A DNA stretch of 64,000 bases from an uncultured bacterium (lineage in GTDB: Bacteria > Verrucomicrobiota > Verrucomicrobiia > Verrucomicrobiales > DEV007). The notes below the pieces were generated by a model. The model was not told where the DNA came from. It saw only the letters and a list, made by a program, of their open reading frames with translations, and made no database searches. The translations under genes were made by a program, and so were the position numbers. Positions 9,001 through 40,833 of this stretch are shown piece after piece. The stretch is from the NCBI GenBank assembly GCA_963977015.1, contig CAXBMO010000012.1, forward strand, positions 96,001 through 160,000. Reading direction: 5' to 3'. Numbering within the stretch: the first letter of the stretch is position 1; each line of letters starts with the position of its first letter.

Positions 9001-11849
9001 ACAACGCGCCGCCGGCTGATCTCGACCTGACCGAGGACGAATCGCTGAACCGCGATACCGTCAACGTCTTCAACGATGACAGCGTGGCCGACGACACTGG
9101 CGTCCTGACCGAAGACAACCTTTCCGGGCTCGGCATGGGGTCGGATTCGATCGTTGTTCCGGGGACTGGCGGGGGACCGGATGTAACCATCCAGGATGGG
9201 ATCACGTATCGCGATGTGGAGCAGCTCAATGTGAATCTGGGCAGCGGCAGCGACACCTTCACCATCAATTCGGTGGGCGCGGATCTGCTGCTCGATCTCG
9301 GCGACGGGGACGACCAGGTCGACATCCTCAACGACAGCGGCGCGATCACCGATTCAATCACGATTCTCGGCCAGGACGGCGACGACGACGTGATTGGCGA
9401 TACCGCGACGATGGTCGATACCTTCACCTTCGACGGCGGAGAGGGGATCGATGATCTGGAGCTGACCAACTTCACGATCACCGGAGCGGCCGGCGATGTG
9501 GACGAAGCGAGCGGCGACGGGATCTACGGATTGAATCTTCAAAACGTCACCATCACGGAAAGTTCCTTCAGCGAAAGCACGGTCGCCGGGATTCGGCTCG
9601 AAACGATCGGCGGCGACGTCGAGATCACCGATACCACGGTCGAGTTGAACGGCGAGCAGGGAATTTCGATGGAGGACGTTACCGGTGACGTGACCCTCAC
9701 CACGGTCCAGGCGCTGGAGAATGGCACGGCTCTGGAAGAGATGCGGAAGGACGGAGTTTACATCCTGAATCTGGACGGCACGTTGACGGTCGACGATAGC
9801 GAATTTTCGGACAACGAGGGCCACGGTCTCTACGTCGAGAATGGCACGTCCATCATCGTCTCAGGCACGCTTGCCTCTGGAAACGCCGAAGACGGGTTCA
9901 ACTTCCTGAACGTGGGGTCGGTTGAATTCGATACGGTCGAAACGCAGGGCAACCAGAACGGAGTTTACATCGAGAACGCCTCGTCGTTCCGCGATTCCAG
10001 CGGGCGCCACGATTCCAACCGGGAAGACGGCATCTCGCTGATGTCGGTCAGCGGTTCGGTTGCGTTCAACAACACCACCGCGTCCGGCAATTTGTCGAAC
10101 GGCGTTTACGCGACGAACGTGGGCGGCGTTAATCTTCAAGGCGTCACGTTGAGTGGGAACGGCAGCCGGGGCCTCCTCGTGGAAGGCGGCGGAAACGTGG
10201 ACATTTCCAAGAGCAGCGCCAGCGGCAATGGCGAAGTCGGGTTCGAACTGCAGGATGTCAGCGACATTACCCTCAAGAACGTGGAAGCGACGAAGAACGG
10301 CACCGGACTTCTCGTCGAGAGCGCGCGCTCGCTCGAGGACGTCGGAGGGAGCTATGAGGCGAACCGGAAAGACGGGATGAACCTGCGGAAGCTGCGGTCC
10401 GTGGAGCTGACCCAGACCACTGCGAGTGGCAATGGCGGCAACGGGATTCAGATCTCCAACCTCAGCGGTGATCTGACCGTGTTGCAGGGCACCTTTATCG
10501 GGAACAGCCTCACCGGCCTTGCCGTCAGTGGGGTTCGCGGGATTCGTATCTCCAATACCCAATCGACCGGCAACGGTTCGAAAGGCTACGATTTGGGGAA
10601 CGCAAGCAGCGTCAATCTGGTTAGTGTCGTCGGCAGTCAGAACGGTTATATCGGTCTCGTTGTTGAGAACGCGGGCAGCTTCTCCGACCTCAACGGTGAC
10701 TATAATTTCAACGGAGTCGGGGGCGTGTTCCTCATGAACATCCCGGTCGCGGATCTGACCGGAACGTCGTTCGTCGGCAATGGAGTCTTCCCGATTCAGA
10801 TGATTAACGTGGGGCTTGCCACCTTCCTCGACGTGGAGTGGGACGACGAACTGGAAGGCGCCAGGGTCGGCACCATCGTCCTGGGGCCGGGCGATTACCG
10901 GATCGAAGATTTTGAGAACGTCGGTGTCGATGAAATCGAGCTGCTGGATGGAGCGACGTTGCTCGGCAATGGTGAGACCAGCGCCACGATCACCACTCAC
11001 GAAGGTTCTCGTCTGGCGCCAGGAATTTACGAGCCGGGGATTATTCGTTCGCACGGCGTCACCTTTGAGAAAGGCTCCACCTTTGAAGTCCAGATTGGTG
11101 GGCTTACCGCCGGAGTTGGGGCAGGATTCCACGATCAACTTCAAGTGGTAGGTTCGGTCGTGATCGAGAACGCAACCCTCGAGCTGTTGGCCTTTGGTGG
11201 ATTCCAACCTTCGTTCGGACAGGATTACGTGATCATCGACAACGATGGCTCTGACGCTGTGAAGGGGAATTTCGAGGGACTTGAAGAAGGAGCCTCGATT
11301 TCGCAGTTCCTCGGATCGAGGATCAGTGCCCGAATCAGCTACGAAGGTGGCGACGGAAACGATGTCGTTGTTTCAACGCTCGTCCCCGGAGAGCTGATGC
11401 GTTATCTGGAGGAAGAAGGGTTTGATCGTTTCGATCTGTTGGGGAGAAATGATTTGCTGAGCGACCGCTGGATGTCCGGTAACATTTTTGCTGGATTTGC
11501 CGCTTACGGATCGCTTGGGATTCAATCTCCGCTCTTGGCTGGAGCGGTCGCTCCCGGCACCTCGGTATATATTACCCTTTACGGCGAAAATGGGATGATC
11601 GTGGGACAGCAGTTGGCGACGGCCGACGCTTCTGGAAACTGGGTTGCCGTGATGCATGGAGCAAACGTCTCCGGGCAGGTTACGAGAGCCTCGATTCAGA
11701 CGACTTCAGCCGATGGCGCCTTGGTCTACTTCGATTCTTACTTCGTGAATTTCGGGACGAACTCAAATGGATCGGCCTTCTCCGTGGGGGATCTGGATAT
11801 TACCGGAAGACTGGTGAGTCCAGTTGACCAGGCCCTCGATAACGGGTGA
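3..11849 (+). CDS. Giant acidic secreted/surface protein (adhesin-like; RTX-type Ca-binding motifs, Calx-beta-like repeats, parallel beta-helix); 5'-truncated by window edge
   Basis: Frame is open from nt 3 (SRVKTTAAGFLSGAGADSD...) into the 3924-aa ORF, so the true start is upstream. GGxGxD motifs (GGDGVD, GGSGAD, GGDGDD, GGLGSD) at ~6.7-7.7 kb; three Calx-beta-like units (V.E.G..DTY...L...LTF...NW...TV.V) at ~7.85-8.85 kb; beta-helix repeats (ASGN...G...) at ~9.45-10.8 kb; ends TGA TAG. Confidence 0.9.
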   Translation, partial: SRVKTTAAGFLSGAGADSDHDIVSMVTAAIGDDATVTAKGVMMDAVNLIDKPAVASSGSAGDSNLYGTAKALVAGAGADSDTDLSLVTHVNIGDDASVTVVGESSNDDVFNLRAYNQINAQDKVTFAASGLAAGASATTTIRTLVDEAKIVIGEGAELTSSGRIEMSARGSGTVVVRTNAEGNGGVGVVAGSSRVDIKPHNEVSIEAGAHLLADGDIRLSAGRSGDFESDFYTLISRFDSYSSAAIPVDDINAYSFILQDNLITVDTGALLQTAREARLHAERLGFNSMEVGAVGHSWAANAFNAALAFDDGESHSEAHATVRMDGTVETGIQRIQSLTLDGWDSETGEITDSTVVGNVSFTVSQEVLESSLVRELQFAQDQIAQYPNNTTLVTFYQSEVNRISAELASLGLLDLDAPEGVISSNEQYVMTVTVDPVYAEAGKIDIRTDQTTGSGTWIAPGDASVTITNNTPAFLKIKGVTIPEENGGLFINGEEVADNDDIVDWNNRSATDDNLFNQFEGNVTPATATFAAVPDNEESTPTITIENALNVNTVETTDESYPWPDVTIVGASEGGIGISAPRAHLTLSTHPLPGNGDIIINNEIITATQTIIAGGTLTIDGVSQQNVEGAPYTAWAAATNGPYGVDSEGHAAGYADWVTAASGTEVASVFGQEPNSNFGLYADKIYIRAEYLNVNGIIQSGYEDFSLTLDGDTETEIASLRSQGGDRIYLPDASAASKHFSVFYIKSTDTIQVEELVVSGGYIDLEGHILNTANGKIRLLGGYGKIEVTNNTDHNLQIEELDASKRGAGTLIIKDKAKGTSSDPHVTIYTKDENGITVQQDDGSVATGSSLASLTVSGGGTSDFSQYQTEGGWRFGWAVGLTQLEISRAVKKSSSWLFIPLGSSFSGPWQSVEVEGQPTLKEQSGYFFRDTGITEAYTYGKVTINDPQPVQMTQTTHTTWYGKKTITAYYSQKVGQDITHTHTIDADRPIDIEFMGYDEGEVTVTSTGSGSVDVRGAIANASGETTITSEGAITTTGSGAYIGGRRVELSAETGIGEAEEAPLQTRVTDTPSQSFNGGLIFDSVDSGLDTITRAGSWLIDGFAAGQTLTISGSNLNDGIYTIESVAGSILTVAAGNSLQDESNSDVSALAVGDIPDSLPSSLKATTTEGGIFIAEQLGDIAIDQVVTGSGNVVIQSNGAITVGKQNSSTFYEGLVQGDSVTLEADNGGVGNGEARPLVIDSAISGGLNDKVNVTAADDVFLKEKSGDLRIEKITSQGDVYLEVTSGDLVDLNEDETRDERTYNELKGGVWADLSLTADGGALEKIEAAKVEQASFRESEYRTYWQFRDTQSDSSTYDAAHVVSLTAEEDTFYRTELGYDDAAIETLENSRTTQYHQLNDFYGAFGDTFDADFTYTLSAAEDSALESGFKVWTEEELLYSISSGLLKTVTDTTVSEEDPNIVANDIKLVVGGGVGQTNGTMDIDMEVLRTAPAEGSMSFSGDTLSFSGSSWDALGFAVGQQIFIEGSDSNNGAYLIESVAGDTLNLNYTDDDGVVQDASFTAETDDLRVAITLTDEQRVTLAASERTDVSYLASAPINAVVTFVANSGSGATITRVSGEDFSGFSAGDVIAISGNSGNSTEGLQTYEIDSVAGDVITFASAVDFVAESAVSIEMSNIILDPETDGDSIAIGRINLVEDIDIQASGTVTVDADEQVFLGSESNVSVQSIEAGDATTGDEIRVKTGLSILSADQSVTNVRGGEVILEAAEGAIGVEDGEVRTNLVGDGNLTARASEDIRIVEVEGDLPVGSIYSKTGGAYLRATDGSIIDGYDHEFTNIQSNLVELSASEGIGEEDNSLDINVAVSPGDTVDAIGTGTIKATADSDIYLTETNGSMNVRNILSESGDVELRADAFIVDAVDLVDPSDPDSAHDDGPDSNPRADVIGNHVTLIAGLGGAGGIGIAGNDLDIDTSYSGTGSLTASSQLNNIYLIETAADGDGTLDEDLVLYEIAANGVDTDDFVETAFITAPLGRILNGNPSGANVTSGKIWLFATMDVGEVDNRISTVAQAIEGKSTSGSFIVNNTGAIEVGGVVSGPVAGYSASGLEAGGSVLFTAASPVTVSENVTAGGEIIIEAHDDDDAEADDLTVQDGITVSSTGDRVVLRGGDDVLIEEGASISAFTGIEIYGDYGNADAGEGSTVRIDGSLSAPTIQISGNTDDDTFNFSPSTLSGDVTILGGDGVDQFLLHDLPNLDVVNRNETDRQTISLDGQEGSDQYTVNLVGEDVDYVINVSDSGSVTDIDSMIINATDEADTILLRKNFVASLNGNAADGFTDDVERINYDSTINARLRINLAGGDDNFVSDDNSTLTTVDGGSGADTFQIGQVFANDRVAPNVAAGDEIETIEVTRGFLTKGISVPMTIYGGDGDDVFSVYSNQAPLRMEGEDGNDEFIIRAFVRADDDSSTSTEEALVEGGGGDDLIHYNINANVSINGGTGFDKVVAIGTELADHFVITENGIFGAGLNITVSNVEEAIEVDGLEGDDTFFVQSTAAGVVTTLIGGLGSDTFNVTGDVNATIHAAEAEGRSGVINHVADSDDPSYEGIAAPGIQLNVADSATTKVVIEKSGSSTTVSEDVDGSVDTYEIYLNEALPDAGAEASITVSAAQSASKELAEGGQTVEISTDGVNFAAALVLTFNAGNWTTHRTIHVRAGSDTVKEGEKNVIVSHSIESNRDVLDGISIANMEVAVFDDDKDELIITESGPSTSVTENGATDTYTVALTHEPAPGETVTVTLNHDDTQLTLSDDTLTFGDEDSANPWNVPQTVTVTAFNDDVVENTIRELITHDVTSTGTFSVSEAPTINVSVTDDDIGGVIVEESGGSTVVVDGGAGDSYTLRLSKEPENPVTVNVLADDQTLVSSADVRFTAAVGDNPPMITFDHTNWNLAVTVDVEANPDFEGGDAQTIKFAVQPHLTNRIQGPLVIEGGTGSGPDRTLAIPVTLPTEDNAPPADLDLTEDESLNRDTVNVFNDDSVADDTGVLTEDNLSGLGMGSDSIVVPGTGGGPDVTIQDGITYRDVEQLNVNLGSGSDTFTINSVGADLLLDLGDGDDQVDILNDSGAITDSITILGQDGDDDVIGDTATMVDTFTFDGGEGIDDLELTNFTITGAAGDVDEASGDGIYGLNLQNVTITESSFSESTVAGIRLETIGGDVEITDTTVELNGEQGISMEDVTGDVTLTTVQALENGTALEEMRKDGVYILNLDGTLTVDDSEFSDNEGHGLYVENGTSIIVSGTLASGNAEDGFNFLNVGSVEFDTVETQGNQNGVYIENASSFRDSSGRHDSNREDGISLMSVSGSVAFNNTTASGNLSNGVYATNVGGVNLQGVTLSGNGSRGLLVEGGGNVDISKSSASGNGEVGFELQDVSDITLKNVEATKNGTGLLVESARSLEDVGGSYEANRKDGMNLRKLRSVELTQTTASGNGGNGIQISNLSGDLTVLQGTFIGNSLTGLAVSGVRGIRISNTQSTGNGSKGYDLGNASSVNLVSVVGSQNGYIGLVVENAGSFSDLNGDYNFNGVGGVFLMNIPVADLTGTSFVGNGVFPIQMINVGLATFLDVEWDDELEGARVGTIVLGPGDYRIEDFENVGVDEIELLDGATLLGNGETSATITTHEGSRLAPGIYEPGIIRSHGVTFEKGSTFEVQIGGLTAGVGAGFHDQLQVVGSVVIENATLELLAFGGFQPSFGQDYVIIDNDGSDAVKGNFEGLEEGASISQFLGSRISARISYEGGDGNDVVVSTLVPGELMRYLEEEGFDRFDLLGRNDLLSDRWMSGNIFAGFAAYGSLGIQSPLLAGAVAPGTSVYITLYGENGMIVGQQLATADASGNWVAVMHGANVSGQVTRASIQTTSADGALVYFDSYFVNFGTNSNGSAFSVGDLDITGRLVSPVDQALDNG

Positions 11850-28326: not shown

Positions 28327-28459
28327 TGCTTCATCCTATCATTTCGAAGGCTCTGACCAAGCTTAAGTTGCTCGCAACGCAATTCCGCAGCGCAAGTGAT
28401 GACGCCGCGATTGACAAGCCAAGCCATGGTTCCTAAGCTGCGCCTCGTTGAAAACCCCC

Positions 28460-29392
28460 ATGAAAAAGACCCTCATCCTGGCCTTCATTTTTGCCAATAG
28501 CATCAGTTGGCTCACCGCCCAGCAGGAAGAAACTGCGCCGGCTCCCGAGCCGCCCACTCACGCCGATGTCGCCTACGGTCCACACACGCCCAACGTGCTC
28601 GACATCTGGATCGCCGAAGGCGAAGGACCGCGGCCGCTTCACGTTTACATTCATGGCGGCGGCTGGACTAGCGGCGACAAGTTCAAGAAAGGAAATCCTC
28701 AGAACGCGTGGCTCGCCAAGGGCATTTCCTATGCGGCCATCAACTATCGTCACACGCCTGGGGCTCCACTCCCGGCCCCGGTTCACGACGCGGCCCGCGC
28801 CATCCAGTTTCTTCGCTCCAACGCAGAAGCGTGGAACATCGACAAGGAGAAAATCTGTCTCAGCGGGGGAAGCGCCGGGGCCTGCACCTCCATGTGGTTG
28901 CTCACCCATGACGATCTCGCCGACTCCGACGCCGAAGATCCGGTGATGCGCGAATCGACCCGGGTTTCGGGCGCCGCCGTCTCCTCGGGACAGACCTCCA
29001 TCGATCCCAAGCAGATCGAGCCTTGGCTGGGGCCCATGGTGCTCCAGCATCGAATGATCAATATGGCCGTTGGTGAGGAGACGATCGAGGGTGCGTTGAA
29101 GAACTACGAAACCCACAAGGCCCTGTATCAGGAATTTTCGGCCTACAATCACGTTAGCAAAGACGATCCGCCGCTCTTCATGACCTACGGCAGAGACATG
29201 ACGCTCCCTTCCAAGAGTGCCGGTCACGGGATTCATCACCCGGTCTACGGCGTGAAAATGAAAGAGAAAGCCGACCGTGTGGGGATGGAATGCCATCTCC
29301 TCATCGGCGGTGGCACCGTCTCCAAGTCTGAAACATACAAGAACGCGGACGCGTTTATCACCGCGATCCTGTTGGGGACTGACGAATCCTAG
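28460..29392 (+). CDS. Alpha/beta hydrolase (esterase/lipase)
   Basis: Signal peptide; HGGGW oxyanion motif, INYR, GGSAG nucleophile motif, GIHHP. Confidence 0.88.
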   Translation: MKKTLILAFIFANSISWLTAQQEETAPAPEPPTHADVAYGPHTPNVLDIWIAEGEGPRPLHVYIHGGGWTSGDKFKKGNPQNAWLAKGISYAAINYRHTPGAPLPAPVHDAARAIQFLRSNAEAWNIDKEKICLSGGSAGACTSMWLLTHDDLADSDAEDPVMRESTRVSGAAVSSGQTSIDPKQIEPWLGPMVLQHRMINMAVGEETIEGALKNYETHKALYQEFSAYNHVSKDDPPLFMTYGRDMTLPSKSAGHGIHHPVYGVKMKEKADRVGMECHLLIGGGTVSKSETYKNADAFITAILLGTDES

Positions 29393-29458
29393 CCGGGCAT
29401 CGAATTTTCCGCCCCATACGCGGGGTTGCGTTTCCACCGTCCTGCGGGTTAGTCGGCC

Positions 29459-31213: not shown

Positions 31214-31240
31214 CCGGTTGGGGAACCGCAGATGGGAATC

Positions 31241-31290
31241 TTTGGACTGCGGAAGCCTGCTGCCGCTATTTCAGAAAGCAGCCCTGCTGC
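31241..31290 (+). repeat. REP-like element, left of RAYT-1
   Basis: TTTGGACTGCGGAAGCCTGCTGCCGC...GCAGCCCTGCTGC; GC-rich hairpin; imperfect inverted copy at 31961-32010. Confidence 0.8.
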
Positions 31291-31348
31291 TGGACCAATT
31301 CCAAATACGGATTCAACTTCTGACAACGTAAAACGGCCCCTTATCCCG

Positions 31349-31942
31349 ATGATTAACCAGCCTGCTTCACTTCCAACGAATGAACAATCAGGCACGGGTT
31401 CCCGCGATTGGCCTCACGCCCCACCACATCGATTGGGTGGAGCCGGCGTTTACTTTGTGACGGCTCGCGCCCGCGATCAGCGTCATATCCTCGCTGATGA
31501 CACGATGAAATCCTGGTTTCAGAAACTCCTGTTTGTCGTGGTTGATGAGTTTGGTTGGAAACTTGAGGTATGGGCCATTCTATCCAATCACTATCACTTC
31601 GTTGCGCATAGTCCCGAGAATGGAGAGGATGGTAAAACGCTGAGCCCGTGCCTGCGAAAGCTTCATAGCCTGACGACGAAGGAGTTGAACCGTCGAGAGA
31701 ACCAGTCAGGCCGAACTCGCCTTTGGCAGAACTACCGCGAAACTCACCTGACGTATCAACGAAGTTATCTGGCGCGGTTGAATTATGTCCACCAAAACGC
31801 GGTTCATCACGGTTTGGTGACGGACGGGATTGACTATCCGTGGTGCAGTGCCGCGAAGTTTATGGATTCAGTGACTCCCGCCTGGAGCAAAACCGTTGCG
31901 AGTTTTAGGTATGATGAAATTGCGAAGGAGGACGGCGAGTAA
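31349..31942 (+). mobile_element. REP-associated tyrosine transposase (RAYT, IS200-like Y1 HUH family), copy 1
   Basis: WPHAPPH, YFVT, HUH motif SNHYHFV, LWQNY, NYVHQNAV.HGLV, YPWCSA; flanked by inverted REP-like repeats. Confidence 0.88.
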
Positions 31943-32020: not shown

Positions 32021-32932
32021 CTAACCCAAATGAGCCGTGAAAAACTCCACCGTCCGCTTCCAAGCCAGCTCCGCCTGTTCCTCATCGTAGCGGCTCGTTG
32101 AATCATTGTGGAAGCCGTGGTTCGCGGCTGGATACATGTGCATCGTGTAAGGCACATCGTTCGCCTTCAAATCCGCCTCATACTCCGGCCACGTCCCATT
32201 CACCCGCTTGTCCAGCTCCGCCAACTGAATCATCAACGGCCCCTTGATGTTCTTGCGCAGCTCCTTCGCCGCTGGAGTCCCGTAAAACGGCACTCCCGCA
32301 TCCAGCACATCCGGAATCGCCGCCGCCAGCATGTTCACCACATACCCGCCATAACAAAAGCCCACCGCACCCAATTTTTCCGTCGTCGACTCCAGCGCGT
32401 TCACATATTTCGCCGCTGCGATGAAGTCCTGCTCCAGCTTCGCCGCATCCATCGACTTCTGCATCGCGCGTCCCTCGTCATCATTCCCCGGATATCCGCC
32501 TAACGGATGCAACGCATCCGGAGCAAACGCCACAAAGCCCGCCTTCGCCGCCCGCCGCGCCACATCCTTCACATACGGATTCAGCCCGCGATTCTCATGC
32601 ACCACCAGCACCGCCGGCAACTTGCCTTCCACCGCCGTTGGTGTCACCAGGTAACCACGACCCTCGCCATGGCCATTGGGCGAATCAAACAACGCATACT
32701 GCGCCTTGATGTCGGGATCATTGAAACTCACCTGCTCGGCTTGCGCATAATTCGGCATCAGCGCACCCATCAACGTCCCCATCGTCAGTCCCCCAACCGT
32801 CAGCGTCGAAAGGCGATTTAGAAACGTGCGCCGGTCAATGATGCCGTGGGCATACTCATCATACCAATCGAAAGCTTCTTGTGGGATTGGCTGGGTGGCG
32901 GGTGATTCGGGAGAGAAAGTTGGAGTCATCAT
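32021..32932 (-). CDS. Dienelactone hydrolase family protein (YghX-like)
   Basis: YDEYAHG.IDRRTFL twin-Arg-like leader, HENRGLN, GFCYGG nucleophile, HGFHND. Confidence 0.9.
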   Translation of the reverse strand: MMTPTFSPESPATQPIPQEAFDWYDEYAHGIIDRRTFLNRLSTLTVGGLTMGTLMGALMPNYAQAEQVSFNDPDIKAQYALFDSPNGHGEGRGYLVTPTAVEGKLPAVLVVHENRGLNPYVKDVARRAAKAGFVAFAPDALHPLGGYPGNDDEGRAMQKSMDAAKLEQDFIAAAKYVNALESTTEKLGAVGFCYGGYVVNMLAAAIPDVLDAGVPFYGTPAAKELRKNIKGPLMIQLAELDKRVNGTWPEYEADLKANDVPYTMHMYPAANHGFHNDSTSRYDEEQAELAWKRTVEFFTAHLG

Positions 32933-33188
32933 GAAAGGGGTTGAGATTCGGCATTCACCTTCCAACTCCTTTGCCGAACCTCAAGCAAAACCTGACGAAC
33001 CAACCTTCGCTGGAAGGAGACCGCCGATGACGCACCTTGGACGGCTCGAAAGGTGCCCCGTTGGAACCTTGGGCAACTCATTCTCGATGACAAAGCGAGT
33101 CTATCCGTCGGAGTTTCTACACCGATTGATGATGCCAACCGTGGTGAAGAACTTCATCAAATAGGGCCACCCGTGACCATGAAATCGG

Positions 33189-35486
33189 TTACTTCGCGGC
33201 CAGGCCGGGATCCTTGCCTGCGGCGGCTTTTTTGAAGGCGGCGATGACCTGGCCGGGAGTGATGACCTCGTCGAGGAAGAGGATCGGTCCTTCCGGTGGG
33301 ATCACCATGTAATAGGGAATGGTGGGGTGATCGAAGTGATGGAGAATCTCATCGACGACTTTGTTCGGCTTGGTGATATCGGCGAGCATCGGAACGATGT
33401 TGCGCGCTTCAATTTCGGTGCGGACTTGGCTGGAATTTACGAAGACAACTGTCTCGTTTTGTTTGCAGGTCAGTCACCAATCTGCGGTGAAGTCGATGAA
33501 GACGGTTCGTTTCTTACTTCGATGTTGAACGATTTGGACCGGGTTGATTTCGTCCCAGAGAATCCCGTACTTCACGATCTTGTCGGCGACGGCTTTCGGT
33601 TTGGAGGCGAGGAGCGCTTCGGCTTCCTGACCCTTTTTGAAGCCGGTTTGGGTCAGGAAGATGAAGAGGCCGGCAAGGGCGATGGCGGCGATGCGACCCA
33701 TCCACTGGGTTTTGACGGATTTGTAGGGCAGGACGTAGCGCCCATAAATCCAGACGGCCATGGCGAGAATGACGAGGCCGTAGAGAAAGTAGCTGAGGGC
33801 GTCGCGACCCGCGAGCTTGGCATAGACGCTGGTGAGCCAGACGACGGTCGCGAACATGGGGAAAGACATGAACTGTTTGAACGTCTCCATCCACGCGCCC
33901 GGTTTGGGGAGCTTCTTGATGAGGGCGGGGATGTAACTGAGCAGGACGTAGGGAAAGGCGAGGCCGAGGCCGAGCGCGGTGAAGATGGCGAACGAGGCAA
34001 TGGCGGGAGCGCTGAGCGCATAGCTGAGGGCCGAAGCCATGAACGGGCCGGTGCAGGGCGTGGCGATAATGACGGCGAGGACACCGGAGAAAAAGGAGCC
34101 GGAGTAGCCTTCCTTGCTCTGCAGTCCCTGACCCGCACCCGTGAGGGAGGTGCCGAATTCGAAAACACCGGCGAGATTGAGGCCGAAGACGAAGAGAATG
34201 ACGACCATCGAGACGACGAAGAGGGGATTCTGCAATTGGAAGCCCCAGAGGATGTTGTTCCCGGCCAGTTTAATGGCGACGACAATCGCGGCGAGAATCC
34301 AGAGCGATACAAGCACGCCCAAGCCGAAGACGAGTCCGTGTTTGCGCACTTTCGCTTGGTCTTCCCCACTTTGCTGGACGAAGCCCATGATTTTGATGCC
34401 GAGGACGGGAAAGACGCAGGGCATGAGGTTGAGGATCATGCCGCCGAGGAAGGCGAAGACGAAGAGTGCGGGGAAGGGCAGGGGACCCGCCTTGGTGTCG
34501 GAGGTAGAGCCGGCTTCGACGGCGCCCCAGCTGAGCATGGTTTGGACCGCTTCCTGTTGAGCGGCGAAGTCGGGCTTGGGAGCGGCGGCTTCCGGAGTTT
34601 CGGATGGGGTTTCCGTTTCGGCGATGGAAGCGGGTTTGGGTTCGGTTTCGGCTGACGAATCGGTGGAGACGAGGAAAACCTGACCGGAGGCGGATTTGAA
34701 GAGGGCGTTGAACCCGGCCGGAACTGCATCGACACCGCTGGCGATGGGCTGCGTGAAGGTGATAGTTGAACCGGAGACGGCAACGGTTTGGGGCTGATCC
34801 GCATCAACGATCCCCGATTCGGTGGGCCAGAGGAGAAGATCTTTGGGGCTTGAAGCGGCGGAGGCGAGATCGAGCGAAGCGACGAGGTTGCCGTTTTCGA
34901 TCGCGGCGCTGAACTGGTAGGAATCGGGAACTGCGGGAAGTTTGGCGATCGCAGCCTGAATCGCGGGAGACGCAGGCGACGGCGCGGCGGGTTCCGCCTT
35001 GATCGGCAAGTCGAGCGTTGCGGCCTGGTTCTTCGGACTGAGACAGGACTTGTCGTCGCAACTGAGCCAGCTTGCGGTGGCCGAAAGGTTGGCGGTGCCG
35101 CCGGGAGCGAGATCCGGTGAAACCTGGATTTCCGTAAGGATCCAGGCCTCGGACTCGTAGCCGTAACCGATCTGGCCGGCCGTCGTGAACTGCTTGGGCG
35201 TGGAATATCGGCTTTGCCCGGCGGTGAATCCTTCGGGGAGATCCAGATTCACCGTGGTTGGCAATCCGCTGACGCCGGGGTTGGTCCAATAAATGTGCCA
35301 GGGCTCGTCGATGGTGATGTGGACGGCGAGTTGAAAGCTGCTGCCAGGCTGGACCGAGGCGACGTCCGCTTTGAGGAATGGGGTGGCGGGCTCCATTCCT
35401 CCGAGAAACTGGGCCTGCAGATGGGCGGGCTGGAGCAGGGCGAAAGCGGCCAGGAGCGTGAAAGGAAGAAAGCGGAGGTTCATCAT
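33189..35486 (-). CDS. dsbD: Thiol:disulfide interchange protein DsbD with in-frame TGA at the thioredoxin active site (probable selenocysteine, UxxC)
   Basis: nDsbD (WHIYW.NPG, CDDKSC), TM domain (NLMPCVFP, ATPCTGPF), then FTADW-TGA-LTCKQNE; the frame stays open 94 more codons through ADIT and PTIPYY to TAA at 33189, joining ORF 33189-33389. Confidence 0.85.
33439..33457 (-). promoter_or_regulatory. Candidate bacterial SECIS hairpin
   Basis: Starts 17 nt 3' of the UGA: ACGAGAC-AGUU-GUC(U)UCGU, a stem with one bulged U and a G in the second loop position; folded by eye. Confidence 0.5.
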
Positions 35487-35599
35487 CAAATCAGATCGGC
35501 AAACGTGGGAAAGTGAGCTTCGACAAGAATGCTTTCCGGGTTGGTCTAACTGCTGGACGGATCCTTACGATTCGCAAGAAAAATGCTGCGGATGGGGAT

Positions 35600-36001
35600 T
35601 CAAGGCTTGGCCACGTTGGCGCTCGATTCGTCGTCGTCCGTCCCCAGTTTTCCGTCTTTGCCCGCTCCGATTACGGAAATCGTTCCATTTTCATTCGCGT
35701 TGAACTCCAGGGGGTGGCCGTAGCTGTCGACGAACTTGCCGCCGCCCCGGGTGATCACCATTTTGACCAAGGCGGGGTTGGGGATTCCCGAACCGTCTGA
35801 TGTCAGGGCCTTGGCCCAGGCTTCGTTGCTGGTTTCGACCTGTTCATCCGGGTTGTTTTTCTGGTAAATGGCGACCCACGTCTCAACCTGCTTGATGAGG
35901 GGGGCATTTCCGACACGGTGCTGCCAGATATAGCCGCCGATCCCGCAAAGCACGATCAGCACAGCAATAACAGTAGAGGCGACGATGCAACCTTTCTTCA
36001 T
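35600..36001 (-). CDS. Small membrane-anchored protein with GspG/T2SS-G-like C-terminal motif
   Basis: N-terminal TM; DSYGHPL...ISVIGAGKDGKLGTDDD resembles the GspG C-terminal D.WG..Y...S.G.DG..G..DD pattern. Confidence 0.65.
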   Translation of the reverse strand: MKKGCIVASTVIAVLIVLCGIGGYIWQHRVGNAPLIKQVETWVAIYQKNNPDEQVETSNEAWAKALTSDGSGIPNPALVKMVITRGGGKFVDSYGHPLEFNANENGTISVIGAGKDGKLGTDDDESSANVAKP

Positions 36002-36192
36002 GGCAAGGTCGATCAAAGGGAAGAGGTAGGGTTAGGGCAAGCCAAAAACTTGCAAACTCCGCCCGGCAATGAATGGTCCGTCATTCGAATTCGCGGGGAC
36101 GGCTTCACCATGGTGAATACGATCCCCAAACAACCGCTGAATCTTCATTGTTCGCCCGCGTCAAACGCCCTAAAATCGCCCGGATGTCACGC

Positions 36193-36927
36193 ATGCTCAA
36201 ATTGCCCGGTTTCGTGCTGCTTCTTCACGTCGCGCTGCTGCTCAGCGTTGACGCGAAGCCCACCGAGTGGCCGTTGAAGGACGGAAACAGCTATTTTGGC
36301 GAGGCGGTGAGCTACAGTTTCACCACGAAGCAGGTCGGCCTGCGCAAGGCGGATGGCAAGGAGCACCTGTTTCCCGCAAAGGAACTCGCGATTTCCGGCA
36401 AGTTGCAGTTGATGGGTTCCCCGGCGTTCGGCGAGGCGCTCAAGGGATACAAGCCGCCCTTTATTCCCACGCTCGTCTGGATTTTCGGGAGTCTGCTTGC
36501 CCTGTGTTTCCCGGTCATTGTCGGGCTGTGGGGCAGTGCTCATGTCTTGGGAGCGGTCAGCACCATGCCTCGTCATCTGATTGGAGTGGGCAAACTCGTG
36601 TTGCTCGTGGTGATTCAGGTCGTGGGATGGCTGGTTCTTTCGATCGTGCTCGACTCCGAGCGTCCGATTATTCCCGACAAAAACGCGGATATCGTCCTGT
36701 TGATCACGGTGGGGATTTTGGGCCTGATTGTGACCTCGGTGGTGCTTTCCCTGCATTATCACCTGCGATTCATGAAGGGAATGGCGATTGCGCTGCTTTC
36801 CGGCGTTTTCGGCGGGATTGTGGCGACGGCGATGCTTCTCGGCGGCCTGTTTTTGGTCACGCGGATGGAGACGCCGATGGAGACATTGGCAACAAAACTT
36901 GTTTTTGAGCCGTTTGGATGGTTTTAA
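36193..36927 (+). CDS. Membrane protein with N-terminal SHD1-like domain
   Basis: Signal peptide, W.LKDG......V.L.K.DG......L pattern, then 4-5 TM helices; start may be 36184. Confidence 0.6.
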   Translation: MLKLPGFVLLLHVALLLSVDAKPTEWPLKDGNSYFGEAVSYSFTTKQVGLRKADGKEHLFPAKELAISGKLQLMGSPAFGEALKGYKPPFIPTLVWIFGSLLALCFPVIVGLWGSAHVLGAVSTMPRHLIGVGKLVLLVVIQVVGWLVLSIVLDSERPIIPDKNADIVLLITVGILGLIVTSVVLSLHYHLRFMKGMAIALLSGVFGGIVATAMLLGGLFLVTRMETPMETLATKLVFEPFGWF

Positions 36928-37953: not shown

Positions 37954-39087
37954 ATGTCGGAAACGTCAAAATCTCTCAAACAGAAGAGTCGCGAGAAAGT
38001 GGCTCAGTGGAAAAAACTGGTCGCCGAATTCCAAAAGTCCTGTCCGAAAAAGGCTTCCTGGCAACTGGTCAATACCCTGGGTTCCTACGTCGCGCTTTGG
38101 ACGCTGATGTATTTCGCGCTCAAGGTTTCCTGGTGGCTCGCCATTCCCCTCGCGATTGTCGCAGGCGGCATCGTGATTCGCGCCTTCATCATTTTGCACG
38201 ACTGCGGGCACGGCTCCTTCTTCAAATCCAAACAGGCGAACGACTTCTGGGGCGCGGTCTGTGGGTTCATCACCTTCACTCCCTACCATCACTGGCGCTG
38301 GGAACACAGTATCCATCATGCCACTTCGGGCGATCTCGATCGCCGGGGCGTCGGCGATATCTGGACCATGACGGTGGAAGAGTACAAGGAATCCTCCAAA
38401 TTGCTTCAGTTCGGTTATCGGCTGGTCCGCAACCCCATCGTTCTCTTTGTGATCGGGCCGATCTATCTCTTTGTCCTGCGGGAACGCTTTCCTCAGTCGA
38501 GAGCGGGTATTCAGCAGCGGAATTCCGTGTATTTCACCAATATCGCCCTGCTCTGCATCGCGATTGCCTTGAGTTTGACCTTCGGGCTCTGGACGTATCT
38601 CATTCTTCAATTCATCATCATCGCGGTTGCGAGTGCCTCCGGTGTTTGGCTCTTTTATGTTCAGCACCAGTTTGAGGATGCCTATTGGGAGAACTCCGAA
38701 AATTGGGACTACACCGAAGCGGCGATCAAAGGCAGTTCGTTCTACAAGCTTCCCAGGGTTCTCCAGTGGTTCTCCGGAAACATCGGTTTTCACCACATTC
38801 ATCACCTCAGCCCGGGAATTCCCAATTACAATCTGGAGCGGTGTCACCATTCCGACCCAATGTTCAAGAACGTCAAGCCGCTCACGTTCTTCAAGAGTTT
38901 CAAGTCGATGACCTATCGTCTCTGGGACGAGGCTGGGAAGAAGCTCATCACCTTCCAGGAATTCCGGAATCTTCGGAAAGAGGAGATCAAGACTCAAAAG
39001 GAAGAGGCGGAAAAAGCTGCCCGCCTTCGCAAAGAGCGCGCGGAAGAGGATGTTGCGGTGGGAAGAGCCCATCGCGACCTCATGTAG
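37954..39087 (+). CDS. Membrane fatty acid desaturase
   Basis: Three His boxes HDCGH, HSIHH, HHIHH; FYVQHQFE; TM segments. Confidence 0.92.
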   Translation: MSETSKSLKQKSREKVAQWKKLVAEFQKSCPKKASWQLVNTLGSYVALWTLMYFALKVSWWLAIPLAIVAGGIVIRAFIILHDCGHGSFFKSKQANDFWGAVCGFITFTPYHHWRWEHSIHHATSGDLDRRGVGDIWTMTVEEYKESSKLLQFGYRLVRNPIVLFVIGPIYLFVLRERFPQSRAGIQQRNSVYFTNIALLCIAIALSLTFGLWTYLILQFIIIAVASASGVWLFYVQHQFEDAYWENSENWDYTEAAIKGSSFYKLPRVLQWFSGNIGFHHIHHLSPGIPNYNLERCHHSDPMFKNVKPLTFFKSFKSMTYRLWDEAGKKLITFQEFRNLRKEEIKTQKEEAEKAARLRKERAEEDVAVGRAHRDLM

Positions 39088-39114
39088 AATTATTTCTTCT
39101 GCAGCAGCCTGCCA

Positions 39115-40833
39115 ATGCCCAAGAAGCCCGAAGAGCTCCGCAGCTATCGCTGGTTCGGTCCCGATGACCTTCGGTCCTTCGGTCACCGTTCCCGAGCCAA
39201 GCAAATGGGGTATTCCCGCGAGGATTACCAAGGCAAGCCGGTCATCGGCATTCTCAACACCTGGAGCGATCTTCAGACCTGTCACACCCATTTTCGCGAC
39301 CGGGCGGAAGAGGTAAAACGCGGCGTTTGGCAATCCGGCGGGTTTCCGCTCGAGGTGCCGATCATGACGTTGAGTGAAACCTACATGAAGCCGACGTCGA
39401 TGTATTTTCGCAATCTGGTGGCGATGGAAGTGGAGGAGACGCTGCGGTGTTATCCGCTCGACGGTGCGATTTTGATGGGCGGCTGCGACAAAACCGTGCC
39501 CGCCCTGCTCATGGGAGCGTTGAGCGCGGATTTGCCGAGCATCTTTCTGCCCTGCGGCCCGATGCTGAAAGGTGGCTGGAAGGGCAACACGCTCGGAAGC
39601 GGCAGTGACGTTTGGAAATATTGGGCCGAGCGCTGTGCCGGGAATCTTTGCGAAGACGCCTGGCGCGAGCTGGAAGACGGCATCGCGCGGTCGCCGGGCC
39701 ATTGCATGACGATGGGAACCGCTTCGACCATGGGCGCGGTGGCCGAGACGCTGGGATTTTGCCTTCCGGGATCGACATCCATTCCCGCCGTTCATTCGGA
39801 ACACGCAGCGATGGCAACGCGTTGTGGTCGTCGCATCGTGGAAATGGTCTGGGAAGACCTGAAGCCGTCGCAAATTGCCACGAAGGAAGCATTTGATAAC
39901 GCGATTCGCGCGGACATGGCAATTGGCGGTTCCACCAACGCCATTGTTCACCTCATCGCGATGGCCGGTCGCGCCAACGTCAAACTGACGATTGATCGGT
40001 TCGACGAGATTTCACATCAAATCCAGGTGTTGGCCAATCTCCGTCCCAATGGCGAATTTTTGATGGAGGATTTCTACGACGCGGGCGGTCTTCGCGCCCT
40101 GCTCGACCGGATTCGCAATCACCTCGATCTCGATTGCCTCACCATCACCGGAAAAACGCTCGGCGAGAATCTGGAAGGCGCCGAAGTTTACAACGAAGAC
40201 GTGATTCGTCCGACGGATCGTCCCATTTCCAAGGCCGGCGCCACCTTCGTCCTGCGCGGCAACCTCGCGCCGGATGGTTGCGTCATCAAGCCCACTGCCG
40301 CTGAACCACATCTCCTCAAGCACCGCGGTCCCGCCGTCGTCTTCGCCAATTACGCCGATCTCAAGGCTCGGATTGACGAGCCCGATCTCGAAGTGACCAA
40401 GGATTCCGTCATCGTCCTACAAAGCGCCGGGCCGCTCGGCGCGGGAATGCCCGAATGGGGCATGCTCCCGATTCCGAAGAAGCTGCTCGAGCAAGGCGTT
40501 CGCGACATGGTCCGCATCTCCGACAGTCGGATGAGCGGGACGAGTTACGGCACCTGCGTTCTTCACGTTTCGCCGGAAAGCCACATCGGCGGCCCGCTCG
40601 CGTTTGTCCAGACCGGCGATTTCATCGAGCTCGACGTCGAAGCCCGCAAGATCCACCTCGACGTCAGCGACGAAGAGTTGGAGAAGCGCAAAGCCGCCTG
40701 GACCGCCCCCGAACGCAAGTTCAACCGAGGCTACGGCAAACTCTTCGCCGAAGAGATCACCCAAGCTCACGAAGGCTGCGACTTCCGCTTCCTCCACGGG
40801 CAGACTCCGGATGCGGAGCCGGATATTTATTGA
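39115..40833 (+). CDS. araD: IlvD/Edd-family sugar-acid dehydratase (L-arabinonate dehydratase-like)
   Basis: LRS.RWFG.DDLRSFGHRSR N-terminus, GGCDKT, GHCMTMGTAS, GGSTNA, GMPE, SDSRMSGTSYG. Confidence 0.85.
   Translation: MPKKPEELRSYRWFGPDDLRSFGHRSRAKQMGYSREDYQGKPVIGILNTWSDLQTCHTHFRDRAEEVKRGVWQSGGFPLEVPIMTLSETYMKPTSMYFRNLVAMEVEETLRCYPLDGAILMGGCDKTVPALLMGALSADLPSIFLPCGPMLKGGWKGNTLGSGSDVWKYWAERCAGNLCEDAWRELEDGIARSPGHCMTMGTASTMGAVAETLGFCLPGSTSIPAVHSEHAAMATRCGRRIVEMVWEDLKPSQIATKEAFDNAIRADMAIGGSTNAIVHLIAMAGRANVKLTIDRFDEISHQIQVLANLRPNGEFLMEDFYDAGGLRALLDRIRNHLDLDCLTITGKTLGENLEGAEVYNEDVIRPTDRPISKAGATFVLRGNLAPDGCVIKPTAAEPHLLKHRGPAVVFANYADLKARIDEPDLEVTKDSVIVLQSAGPLGAGMPEWGMLPIPKKLLEQGVRDMVRISDSRMSGTSYGTCVLHVSPESHIGGPLAFVQTGDFIELDVEARKIHLDVSDEELEKRKAAWTAPERKFNRGYGKLFAEEITQAHEGCDFRFLHGQTPDAEPDIY

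Follow-up and report, generated by a model that had tools for sequence, protein, structure and literature searches.

A full-length, three-domain reductase of the DsbD superfamily is in all likelihood encoded on the minus strand of the 64,000-nucleotide stretch of Verrucomicrobiales DNA analyzed here (the window), with its codon 672, a UGA, being decoded as selenocysteine (Sec) through SelA, SelB, SelD, and tRNA-Sec under the guidance of a small hairpin. The first-pass annotation of this DNA had proposed a Sec-containing periplasmic DsbD domain that automated pipelines would split or call a pseudogene. The first of these ideas is supported by the presence of the Sec machinery, by the recurrence of TGA at the same alignment column in related genomes, and by its co-occurrence with selA, from which we infer that selenium is inserted at this codon; the second is borne out by the public protein call for the gene, which is 670 aa long and lacks the thioredoxin domain. 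Because the UGA is almost certainly read as Sec, gene callers therefore cut a real full-length protein short.

The mechanical open reading frame (ORF) on the minus strand spans 33474-35489 and ends with FIDFTADW followed by the TGA at 33474-33476, which is the only in-frame TGA of the gene and occupies the first position of a thioredoxin W-C-x-x-C motif. Beyond it, the frame runs on through L-T-C-K-Q-N-E, ADIT, and PTIPYY for 94 codons up to the TAA, exactly as had been described from the letters alone (Table 1). The cysteine content of the protein comprises exactly C144, C149, C358, C479, and C675 in addition to codon U672, and the four DsbD cysteines outside the thioredoxin motif are thus intact, as had been claimed. 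It was equally correct that other genes in the vicinity use TGA as an ordinary stop, given that it ends 12 other long mechanical ORFs in the window (13 of 28 when the DsbD-type ORF is included). The hydrophobic leader at the N-terminus is probably a signal peptide, judging from its sequence and hydropathy. With a membrane core, an N-terminal cysteine pair, and a C-terminal thioredoxin fold, the protein has all the features that define three-domain reductases of the DsbD superfamily, its gamma motif being UxxC. Pfam searches with seven neighboring ORFs identified a dienelactone hydrolase on the downstream side and, at a greater distance, a GH16 enzyme, while five ORFs had no match; no redox partner was found among these seven, and the genomic context gives no functional hint.

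Table 1. Coordinates of the DsbD-type gene, its domains, and its active-site residues within the window.
Feature	Position	Strand	Details
DsbD-type reductase, complete read-through gene	33189..35489	minus	766 codons; TTG start; in-frame TGA at codon 672; TAA stop 33189-33191
Candidate signal peptide (hydrophobic N-terminal leader), residues 1-26	35412..35489	minus	sequence and hydropathy peak at residues 1-19
DsbD_N (alpha) domain, residues 38-159	35013..35378	minus	Pfam PF11412, 47.9 bits (cut-off 25)
Alpha-domain Cys pair	C144 (35058-35060), C149 (35043-35045)	minus	
DsbD_TM (beta) membrane domain, residues 343-554	33828..34463	minus	Pfam PF02683, 62.6 bits (cut-off 27.1)
Membrane-domain Cys	C358 (34416-34418), C479 (34053-34055)	minus	C358 in LMPCVFP; C479 in ATPCTGP
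Thioredoxin-like (gamma) domain core, residues 655-732	33294..33527	minus	both sides of the TGA; Pfam PF13899 (Thioredoxin_7), 37.5 bits (cut-off 27)
UGA codon 672 (U672)	33474..33476	minus	counterpart of the attacking Cys461 in E. coli DsbD
Cys675, second (resolving) residue of the U-L-T-C motif	33465..33467	minus	invariant alignment column C49
94 post-UGA codons finishing the thioredoxin fold	33192..33473	minus	with invariant Asn, Asp, and cis-Pro columns
Candidate bacterial SECIS hairpin	33440..33456	minus	5' arm 33456-33451; AGUU loop 33450-33447; 3' arm 33446-33440 with bulged U

An alignment-based AF2 model of the gamma domain reached a pLDDT of 90.0 and places the U (residue 46 of the model) directly before a helix formed by residues 47-58, and the best fold matches of this model in the PDB are C-terminal domains of DsbD (2fwe, 1uc7, and 2fwf). 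A single-sequence AF2 prediction of the C-terminal 163 residues was discarded at a pLDDT of 39.7. The proposal that the UGA sits at the attacking cysteine of the thioredoxin motif is confirmed by a phmmer alignment in which ADW[U]LTCK is paired with ADWCVACK of the gamma domain of E. coli DsbD (4ip6_A) so that U672 corresponds to the first Cys, and the same alignment contains counterparts of Asp455 and Glu468 of E. coli DsbD in the form of D666 and E679.

A search of the same genome for selA, selB, selC, and selD, which the first-pass annotation had named as a check, found all of them above curated cut-offs. These are selA with 498 bits (cut-off 268), selB with 293 bits (cut-off 242), selD with 376 bits (cut-off 125), and tRNA-Sec (selC) with 61.8 bits for the Rfam model (gathering score 47) and a CUUCAAA anticodon loop. 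ARAGORN called no gene at the tRNA-Sec locus, and we kept the Rfam call over this blank because of the score of its match. The selD gene has an in-frame TGA of its own, in ...SCAG-U-ASK.

To follow the TGA through related bacteria, we used a set of 61 genomes including the window's own, of which 18 have TGA at the DsbD column and 37 have Cys or no stop, the remaining 6 being without a state call. The Sec state follows the presence of selA, which was found above its cut-off in 18/18 genomes with TGA as opposed to 9/37 genomes with Cys or no stop, though the genomes compared are kin and not independent, so that this and other contrasts between Sec and Cys forms overstate significance. Among 28 loci of other relatives that cover the column, TGA was found in 15 and TGC or TGT in 13; 5 further places examined in relatives yielded 2 more TGA, and among wider genome contigs TGA was present in 9 of the best 80 loci. 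Leaving the window's genome aside, the TGA recurs in 17 members of the relatives set and in 4 genome records besides these (21 altogether), and because of this recurrence its position is beyond chance. Together, the survey of 28 loci and that of the best 80 gave 20 distinct Sec sequences with TGA and 82 distinct Cys sequences with TGC or TGT, so that the homologues are by no means all of the Cys type.

In a FastTree phylogeny with 104 rows, the 20 Sec forms all fall into one clade of 24 rows (support 96) that encloses a clade of 16 rows composed entirely of Sec forms (support 98). Among the genomes sampled, the TGA form occurs only in the window's own family (16 of 36 other genomes as well as the window's own) and in one genome of a neighboring family. 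Of 300 other genomes sampled evenly across the phylum, 108 contained a match, and none of these has TGA at the column. Ten of these phylum-wide matches that had been flagged with "1 TGA" were rejected as Sec forms, since all of these codons are terminal stops and the column holds Cys; extra stops in the matches of five relatives are terminal as well and were rejected as further Sec codons.

The SECIS-like hairpin that the first-pass annotation had drawn downstream of the UGA (CGAGAC-AGUU-GUC(U)UCG) is present as described, beginning 17 nt past the UGA with its first loop base as the 24th nucleotide after it. The published bSECIS consensus model, as given in PMC13188914, comprises a loop of 3-9 nt with a G in its first two bases, a stem of 4-16 bp, a spacing of 16-37 nt, and a minimum free energy (MFE) of at most -7.5 kcal/mol. 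The window's hairpin agrees with this model in its 4-nt AGUU loop, its stem of 6-7 bp with one bulge, and its spacing of 23 nt, but at -5.3 kcal/mol lies above the energy limit. The fold of an 81-nt segment is unexceptional when compared to shuffled sequences (z = -0.57; 56/200 shuffles fold at least as well). The hairpin, though real, is thus weak by itself and not beyond chance, and the support for it comes from its conserved position. When we required a stem of at least 5 bp, a loop start 22-25 nt after the codon, and a G in the first two loop bases, a qualifying hairpin was found in 17/20 Sec but only 11/82 Cys sequences, compared to 70/608 arbitrary in-frame anchors of the same genes (about 12%). 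In these 17 Sec genes, the G-containing loop of the hairpin sits 23-24 nt after the UGA, and around 10 different stem sequences retain the hairpin.

A generic scan that applied the loop-length, loop-G, and spacing criteria of the bSECIS model did not separate the two forms, with structures at or below -7.5 kcal/mol in 6/16 Sec and 7/13 Cys sequences. Neither test of covariation was positive: Counting pairs at fixed columns of a gapless alignment gave 67.7% paired versus 65.3% in shuffles, which is not significant (107/500 shuffles were as high), and RNAalifold predicted no consensus pairs. These two null results are likely due to differences in register between the stems, which have a bulge or none and loops of 3-5 nt. 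Shuffling synonymous codons retained a qualifying hairpin in 445/1200 trials, and the stem therefore owes its existence largely to the choice of amino acids in N-E-x-x-x-F and not to silent sites; since pairing in the stem involves mostly the first and second bases of codons, this shuffle is an unsuitable null. The 23-24 nt hairpin is absent from 3 of the 20 Sec genes. A sister subclade of Sec genes without it has a much stronger hairpin (-12 to -18 kcal/mol) that is formed by codons for L-P-G-S-G and whose GUU loop, 43 nt past the UGA, lies outside of the published 16-37 nt range.

Could the TGA be a nonsense mutation that left behind a pseudogene or a truncated alpha-beta protein, with the 94 downstream codons as decaying remnants? 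Such a view would agree with the behavior of gene callers, which stop at the TGA and have populated public protein sets with a 670-aa product without PF13899, and with a hairpin that by itself is no better than chance. We nevertheless regard it as very improbable, because the identical TGA column in so many other genomes, the restriction of TGA forms to genomes with selA, and the occurrence of these forms in a deep clade with gamma-domain identities down to about 27-35% all speak against it. Furthermore, the frame past the TGA is open for 70-130 codons in 19/19 other Sec loci tested, and the fold-defining post-UGA columns N52, D78, and P99 are invariant in an alignment of 55 Sec and Cys sequences. 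That the TGA is a misread or misassembled TGC or TGT would be conceivable insofar as metagenome-assembled genomes carry errors and one of the sequenced runs may be the window's source sample, yet the likelihood of this is close to nil: A 906-nt contig from one public run represents a variant strain that shows 12 differences along the stretch but no listed difference at the TGA, the codon is also spanned by an exactly matching 151-nt contig from a second run that belongs to a different study, and independent assemblies of the 21 other genomes show TGA at the same column. Judged by these contigs, the base check suggested along with the first-pass annotation has therefore come out in favor of TGA. 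All of the runs used here are represented by contigs, and no RNA run was among the sequencing runs listed for the stretch.

It also has to be considered that the UGA might be read through, or mostly terminated, without selenium (by near-cognate Trp, by Cys via the Sec pathway, or with a mix of products), in which case Sec would not be the main functional residue. Bacterial Sec insertion competes with termination, the support for selenium incorporation at this codon is sequence based, and the candidate SECIS is short and fails the published energy limit. However, read-through independent of SelB would leave the strict co-occurrence with selA unexplained, and likewise the positionally conserved, G-containing loop of the Sec genes. 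A Trp in place of the attacking residue of CxxC would moreover be redox-dead, yet the domain is conserved, and overall we judge decoding without selenium to be improbable.

If the UGA is decoded as Sec, then Sec would take the first place of the CxxC motif in the gamma domain, with the hairpin whose loop begins 24 nt past the UGA guiding its insertion. By analogy with E. coli DsbD, electrons would pass from cytoplasmic thioredoxin via C358/C479 to U672/C675 and from there via C144/C149 to envelope substrates, and the redox cycle of the gamma domain would involve a selenenylsulfide in place of a disulfide. Work on the E. coli protein described in PMC2631958 reported that Cys461 attacks and reduces the Cys103-Cys109 disulfide of the alpha domain, and that this residue, whose pKa of 10.5 is unusually high, acts poorly as a nucleophile until it has docked on the alpha domain. 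At physiological pH, a selenol would exist mostly in its deprotonated form, and Sec may therefore be expected to be the faster attacking and leaving group at the alpha-reduction step.

The protein shares with E. coli DsbD (C-terminal domain structures 2fwe, 1uc7, 4ip6, and 1vrs) an architecture of three domains that each have their own redox pair, the gamma domain being the best structural match, but differs from it by having Sec in place of Cys461. Its N-terminal periplasmic region is also distinct, with around 330 residues, roughly 170 of them beyond the DsbD_N match, and an alpha pair of the type Cx4C. With the NCBIfam model for the DsbD subfamily (NF001419), it scores 126.9 bits and thus falls below the cut-off of 330 for E. 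coli-type DsbD. Distant relatives are named "suppressor for copper-sensitivity B" or COG4233+COG4232 in their sources. The ScsB class of the DsbD superfamily is described by Cho and colleagues (2012, PMC3322552) as three-domain reductases with an alpha domain of the COG4233 type that is larger than that of DsbD; the protein from the window shares the three-domain organization and an alpha domain larger than in DsbD, whereas the description of ScsB in that article, as far as it is used here, makes no mention of a Sec form. A phmmer search with the N-terminal 303 residues against PDB sequences gave nothing significant, with only gingipain fragments at E ~0.9, and favors neither the ScsB nor the DsbD type of alpha domain.

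UxxC proteins with a thioredoxin fold are the commonest class of selenoproteins, and among the conserved domain models we take cd02953 to be that of the DsbD gamma domain. Under the name "Trx-like 2" (cd02953, UxxC) and annotated as thiol:disulfide interchange protein, the GOS selenoprotein table of 2008 counts 22 Sec sequences from 13 samples alongside 2,098 Cys homologues. Both this entry and our protein have UxxC in a thioredoxin-like domain, and the fold of the latter is nearest to DsbD gamma, the link between the two being made by a table row and the presumed identity of cd02953. As listed, "Trx-like 2" is one row derived from short reads without architecture, organism, or SECIS, whereas a whole alpha-beta-gamma gene with its host lineage in the Verrucomicrobiales, its spread, and its hairpin is available here. 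A "thiol:disulfide interchange protein" of Deltaproteobacteria appears as a UxxC selenoprotein with PF13098 in Table 1 of PMC13188914, and those of Geobacter and Syntrophus are tabulated in PMC1794560. Compared by these table descriptions, they are like our protein thioredoxin-fold envelope thiol:disulfide proteins with UxxC and have been catalogued since the mid-2000s, but PF13098 is not among the Pfam families found in the protein from the window. TsoB, a rhodanese/DsbD fusion-like selenoprotein according to the same Table 1 of PMC13188914, has two Sec residues in UxxxxU of its rhodanese domain and shares with our protein the DsbD-type membrane core and a thioredoxin domain. Its model (NF045694) is the best NCBIfam match by E-value, but membership was rejected in view of a score of 126.5 bits that lies far below the cut-off of 805, of the lack of a rhodanese domain in Pfam, and of the single U in UxxC.

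The kind of protein is thus not new, since a DsbD-gamma-type entry (assuming our reading of cd02953) has existed in the GOS table since 2008. DsbD is the hub through which reducing power crosses the membrane. For the window's gene and three relatives, public protein calls end at 650-670 aa without the thioredoxin domain, so that any census built on them would count these bacteria among those with a defective envelope reductase and overlook the selenoprotein. We find it conceivable, though at present rather doubtful, that the SECIS was replaced within one orthologous family, with the 23-24 nt hairpin on one side and the +43 GUU hairpin on the other, and that Sec at the Cys461-equivalent position may also lift the high-pKa gate and thereby make the envelope reductase constitutively reactive in about half of this family of Verrucomicrobiales. 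If both hairpins are functional, the family would provide a natural example of a SECIS that turns over while the Sec codon stays in place. Selenium at the attacking residue of DsbD is relevant to the long-standing question of what advantage Sec has over Cys, for which the pKa of 10.5 of E. coli Cys461 serves as a reference value, and the Sec and Cys orthologues found side by side in a single bacterial family are natural pairs for biochemical comparison.

The minus-strand DsbD-type reductase gene of the window appears truncated when its in-frame TGA is read as a stop, but the frame continues past this codon with L-T-C-K-Q-N-E-T-V-V-F..., and the Thioredoxin_7 match of the read-through protein lies on both sides of it (see table). 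Besides the TGA codon, the 766-residue protein has exactly five cysteines, and in a phmmer search of PDB sequences its ADW[U]LTCK falls opposite ADWCVACK in 4ip6, the C-terminal domain of E. coli DsbD. The first-pass annotation, which had proposed a selenocysteine (Sec) at the attacking position of the thioredoxin motif followed by a SECIS-like hairpin, described the sequence correctly in all details, hairpin included; its observation is confirmed and the Sec reading supported. Judged from sequence data, codon 672 is very probably a genuine selenocysteine codon. Other genes here had been said to stop at TGA, and indeed this codon terminates 13 of 28 long, mutually non-overlapping mechanical ORFs in the window (the DsbD ORF counted), so that TGA is not a general sense codon in this organism.

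All four components of the Sec pathway were detected in the window's genome (6.9 Mb, 51 contigs, 95% complete), each above its threshold in the search for selA, selB, selC and selD that had been suggested along with the original observation. ARAGORN made no tRNA-Sec call at the locus matched by the Rfam model. The selD gene itself has an in-frame TGA (...SCAG-U-ASK), which fits the UxxK motif given for SelD in Table 1 of a 2026 review cataloguing 119 prokaryotic selenoprotein families (PMC13188914). It lies around 6.6 kb from the tRNA-Sec gene, while selA and selB sit on other contigs.

Features of the DsbD-type gene, its protein, its surroundings and the Sec machinery (window coordinates unless a residue range or a contig, C1 or C5, of the window's genome is given)
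Feature	Location	Strand	Details
ORF up to the TGA	35489 to TGA at 33474-33476	minus	C-terminal residues ...RTVFIDFTADW
Frame past the TGA	to TAA at 33189-33191	minus	94 codons
DsbD_N	residues 38-159		Pfam 47.9 bits, cut-off 25
DsbD_TM	residues 343-554		Pfam 62.6 bits, cut-off 27.1
Thioredoxin_7	residues 655-732		Pfam 37.5 bits, cut-off 27
C144, C149	N-terminal domain
C358, C479	membrane domain		LMPCVFP, ATPCTGP
U672 (putative), C675	W-U-L-T-C motif
tRNA-Sec	C5, 263260-263354	minus	CUUCAAA anticodon loop; Rfam 61.8 bits, gathering threshold 47
selD	C5, 255715-256644	minus	376 bits, threshold 125
selA			498 bits, threshold 268
selB			293 bits, threshold 242
Second, separate DsbD_N-like match	C1, 377795-378259	plus	E 9.5e-21 to residues 10-166
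Very long mechanical ORF	75-11849	plus	3924 aa, ends TGA
Flanking ORF	28433-29437	minus	no Pfam family at E <= 0.001
236-aa ORF	31232-31942	plus	no Pfam match at E <= 0.001; contains ...WAILSNHYHFVAH...; presumably resembles IS200/REP-associated tyrosine transposase-like proteins
Dienelactone hydrolase	32021-32965	minus	directly downstream of the DsbD gene; YqhI-like N-terminus
Flanking ORF	35600-36016	minus	no Pfam family at E <= 0.001
Flanking ORF	36073-36927	plus	no Pfam family at E <= 0.001
Flanking ORF	37966-39951	minus	no Pfam family at E <= 0.001

Two alternatives are a misread base and a chance nonsense mutation. Confirmation of the base had been called for, and among Logan contigs of four public runs compared over 33100-33900 the codon is TGA, not TGC or TGT, in two: a 906-nt contig of one run extends over this entire region and shows 12 differences, of which none is listed at 33474-33476, and a 151-nt contig of another bridges the codon with zero differences. 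These two runs come from separate studies, one of which may be the source sample of the window.

A nonsense mutation would not be expected to follow the distribution of the Sec pathway. Six-frame searches found a homologue in 60 of 60 relatives, and the predicted pairing of TGA with Cys was indeed seen, the same column being TGA in some homologues and Cys in others: 15 TGA and 13 TGC/TGT among 28 other loci that cover it, plus two TGA and three Cys at five further places with a TGA within the match. Across these relatives and the window's own genome, 18 of 61 genomes have TGA (17 from the window's family, own genome counted, and one from a neighbouring family), 37 are Cys or stop-free across the column (16 verified by codon, 21 inferred from a match with no stops inside), and six remain unassigned as the match falls short of it. 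Of the 31 genomes with selA over the cut-off, 18 are the TGA genomes, all of which have it, versus 9 of the 37 Cys-state genomes; these are counts only, and relatedness would inflate a formal test. Named genome records were scanned separately; of the 80 best loci, 9 had TGA and 71 had Cys. The records nearest to the window carry Verrucomicrobiales MAG titles, and the Cys forms come mostly from Opitutaceae. Of 300 other genomes sampled evenly from the phylum, 108 had a match and none had TGA at the column (in 10 matches with an internal TGA the column is Cys and the TGA a terminal stop), so that among the genomes searched the Sec form was not found beyond the window's family and one neighbour.

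Coding past the UGA likewise argues for a Sec codon. All 19 other Sec loci tested have a frame that is open from 45 codons upstream of the TGA and reaches its stop 70-130 codons downstream. We aligned the gamma (C-terminal thioredoxin-like) domain in 55 rows, comprising 20 Sec forms (window included) and 35 of the 83 usable Cys forms, chosen by keeping every second one in order of identity; D40, A43, W45, the U/C column, C49, N52, D78 and P99 are invariant, with three invariant columns downstream of the UGA. AlphaFold2 with this alignment predicted a thioredoxin fold (pLDDT 90.0, pTM 0.83) in which residue 46 (U) directly precedes helix 47-58 and the part downstream of the UGA supplies two strands and two helices; the single-sequence model was poor (pLDDT 39.7). 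The top Foldseek matches in the PDB were DsbD C-terminal domains (2fwe, 1uc7, 2fwf), and according to the model a product cut at W671 would stop midway through the fold.

Pooling the 28-locus and best-80 sets and dropping duplicates left 20 Sec and 82 Cys sequences. In a FastTree phylogeny of 104 distinct sequences (membrane and gamma region, Sec column treated as gap), all 20 Sec forms fall within one 24-row clade (support 96) together with four Cys forms of the neighbouring family, and a 16-row all-Sec clade is nested inside it (support 98). The tree requires at least three Sec/Cys state changes, though with local support values and several long branches its topology should be taken as no more than indicative. 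Among Sec forms, identity to the window in the gamma domain goes down to 27-35%, so the codon has been retained across deep divergence.

Evidence on the proposed SECIS hairpin is mixed. The element (CGAGAC-AGUU-GUC(U)UCG, starting 17 nt 3' of the UGA, U bulged) has the geometry, bulged U and position first described, but its energy is weak. At -5.3 kcal/mol it lies above the limit of -7.5 kcal/mol of the consensus model in section 5 of PMC13188914, the 81-nt fold did not beat shuffled sequences (z = -0.57), and a generic scan with published bSECIS criteria passed 6 of 16 Sec and 7 of 13 Cys sequences. Fixed-column pair counts gave no significance and RNAalifold found nothing. Under a position-specific definition (a stem of at least 5 bp whose loop begins 22-25 nt past the codon and has G as one of its first two bases), the hairpin is present in 17 of 20 distinct Sec versus 11 of 82 distinct Cys sequences and at 70 of 608 other in-frame anchors in 16 Sec genes. 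Its loops read AGUU, AGGU, GGUC, GGUCU, GGUCA, AGUUG, CGUGU or GUU, and pairing is preserved by around ten different stems (e.g., GAGAC/GUCUU, GAAGC/GCUUC, GAGGC/GCCUU, GAACG/CGUUC). In 445 of 1200 trials, synonymous shuffling left a qualifying hairpin in place, but silent-site shuffling is a poor null because the stem is built on codons for N-E-x-x-x-F whose x residues covary (T with V, A with C or A, R with A). In our reading the hairpin is real and under selection at both the amino-acid and nucleotide level; that of the window gene, taken alone, would prove nothing. After UxxC most Sec forms have N-E and most Opitutaceae-type Cys forms N-K; this E corresponds to Glu468 of E. coli DsbD, and since its codon gives half of the stem (33456-33440), RNA and protein constraints are entangled there.

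A sister subclade comprises three Sec genes without this hairpin and one found later, all in genomes other than the window's. Three of these four have a far stronger hairpin on L-P-G-S-G codons, 30-65 nt after the UGA, with a GUU loop at 43 nt (L048, -18.2 kcal/mol and 12 bp; L141, -15.0 kcal/mol; L037, -12.3 kcal/mol); the fourth, L036, shows the same motif with one mismatch by hand pairing only, as RNAfold did not return it. The consensus model in PMC13188914 allows a spacing of 16-37 nt, which the 43 nt here exceed. A Cys form of the same subclade (L045) has a weaker hairpin at the same position (-6.2 kcal/mol, GCUC loop, around 38-63 nt after its TGC), which may be a remnant of an ancestral Sec form.

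In E. coli DsbD, as described in PMC2631958, electrons pass from cytoplasmic thioredoxin via the membrane Cys pair and the gamma-domain CxxC to the pair of the N-terminal alpha domain; in the last internal step, Cys461 attacks the Cys103-Cys109 disulfide. According to the same source, Asp455 and Glu468 raise the pKa of Cys461, which is 10.5 and makes this residue a poor nucleophile before domain docking. Our reading of the 4ip6 alignment places D666 and E679 of the window protein as equivalents of these two residues. The intrinsic pKa of a selenol is far below that of a thiol, so that U672 would be mostly ionised even beside D666/E679, and selenenylsulfide exchange outpaces disulfide exchange in both directions. 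The gamma domain would then cycle via a U672-C675 selenenylsulfide and might pass electrons faster or with less gating.

Among ocean metagenome selenoproteins, the "Trx-like 2" row of the GOS set has UxxC and cd02953, which we take to be the DsbD-gamma domain model. Since the mid-2000s, a "thiol:disulfide interchange protein" selenoprotein has been on record for Geobacter and Syntrophus (PMC1794560, tables). The whole of Table 1 in PMC13188914 contains no DsbD gamma-domain Sec entry, its sole DsbD-related one being TsoB (NF045694) with UxxxxU in a rhodanese domain. The window protein is not a TsoB member (126.5 bits, cut-off 805) and also falls short of the E. coli-type DsbD subfamily (126.9 bits, cut-off 330). 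The alpha domain may be of the ScsB type (COG4233), a class defined in PMC3322552, since sources give that name to distant relatives. Many relatives also encode stand-alone DsbD_N-like copies of around 300 aa, which may be free alpha-domain proteins like the ScsB ones described there.

As anticipated for automated pipelines, the public gene call is truncated: in a collection of 5.8 billion proteins the window's product is 670 aa long with PF02683 and PF11412 only. Three relatives, which over the queried region are 82%, 59% and 48% identical, have lengths of 670, 651 and 651 aa and no PF13899, and homologues with Cys reach full length and include PF13899. The position of the SECIS candidates may deserve follow-up, and the gene is a well-documented case whose distribution among lineages is clear and whose mis-annotation is worth correcting.
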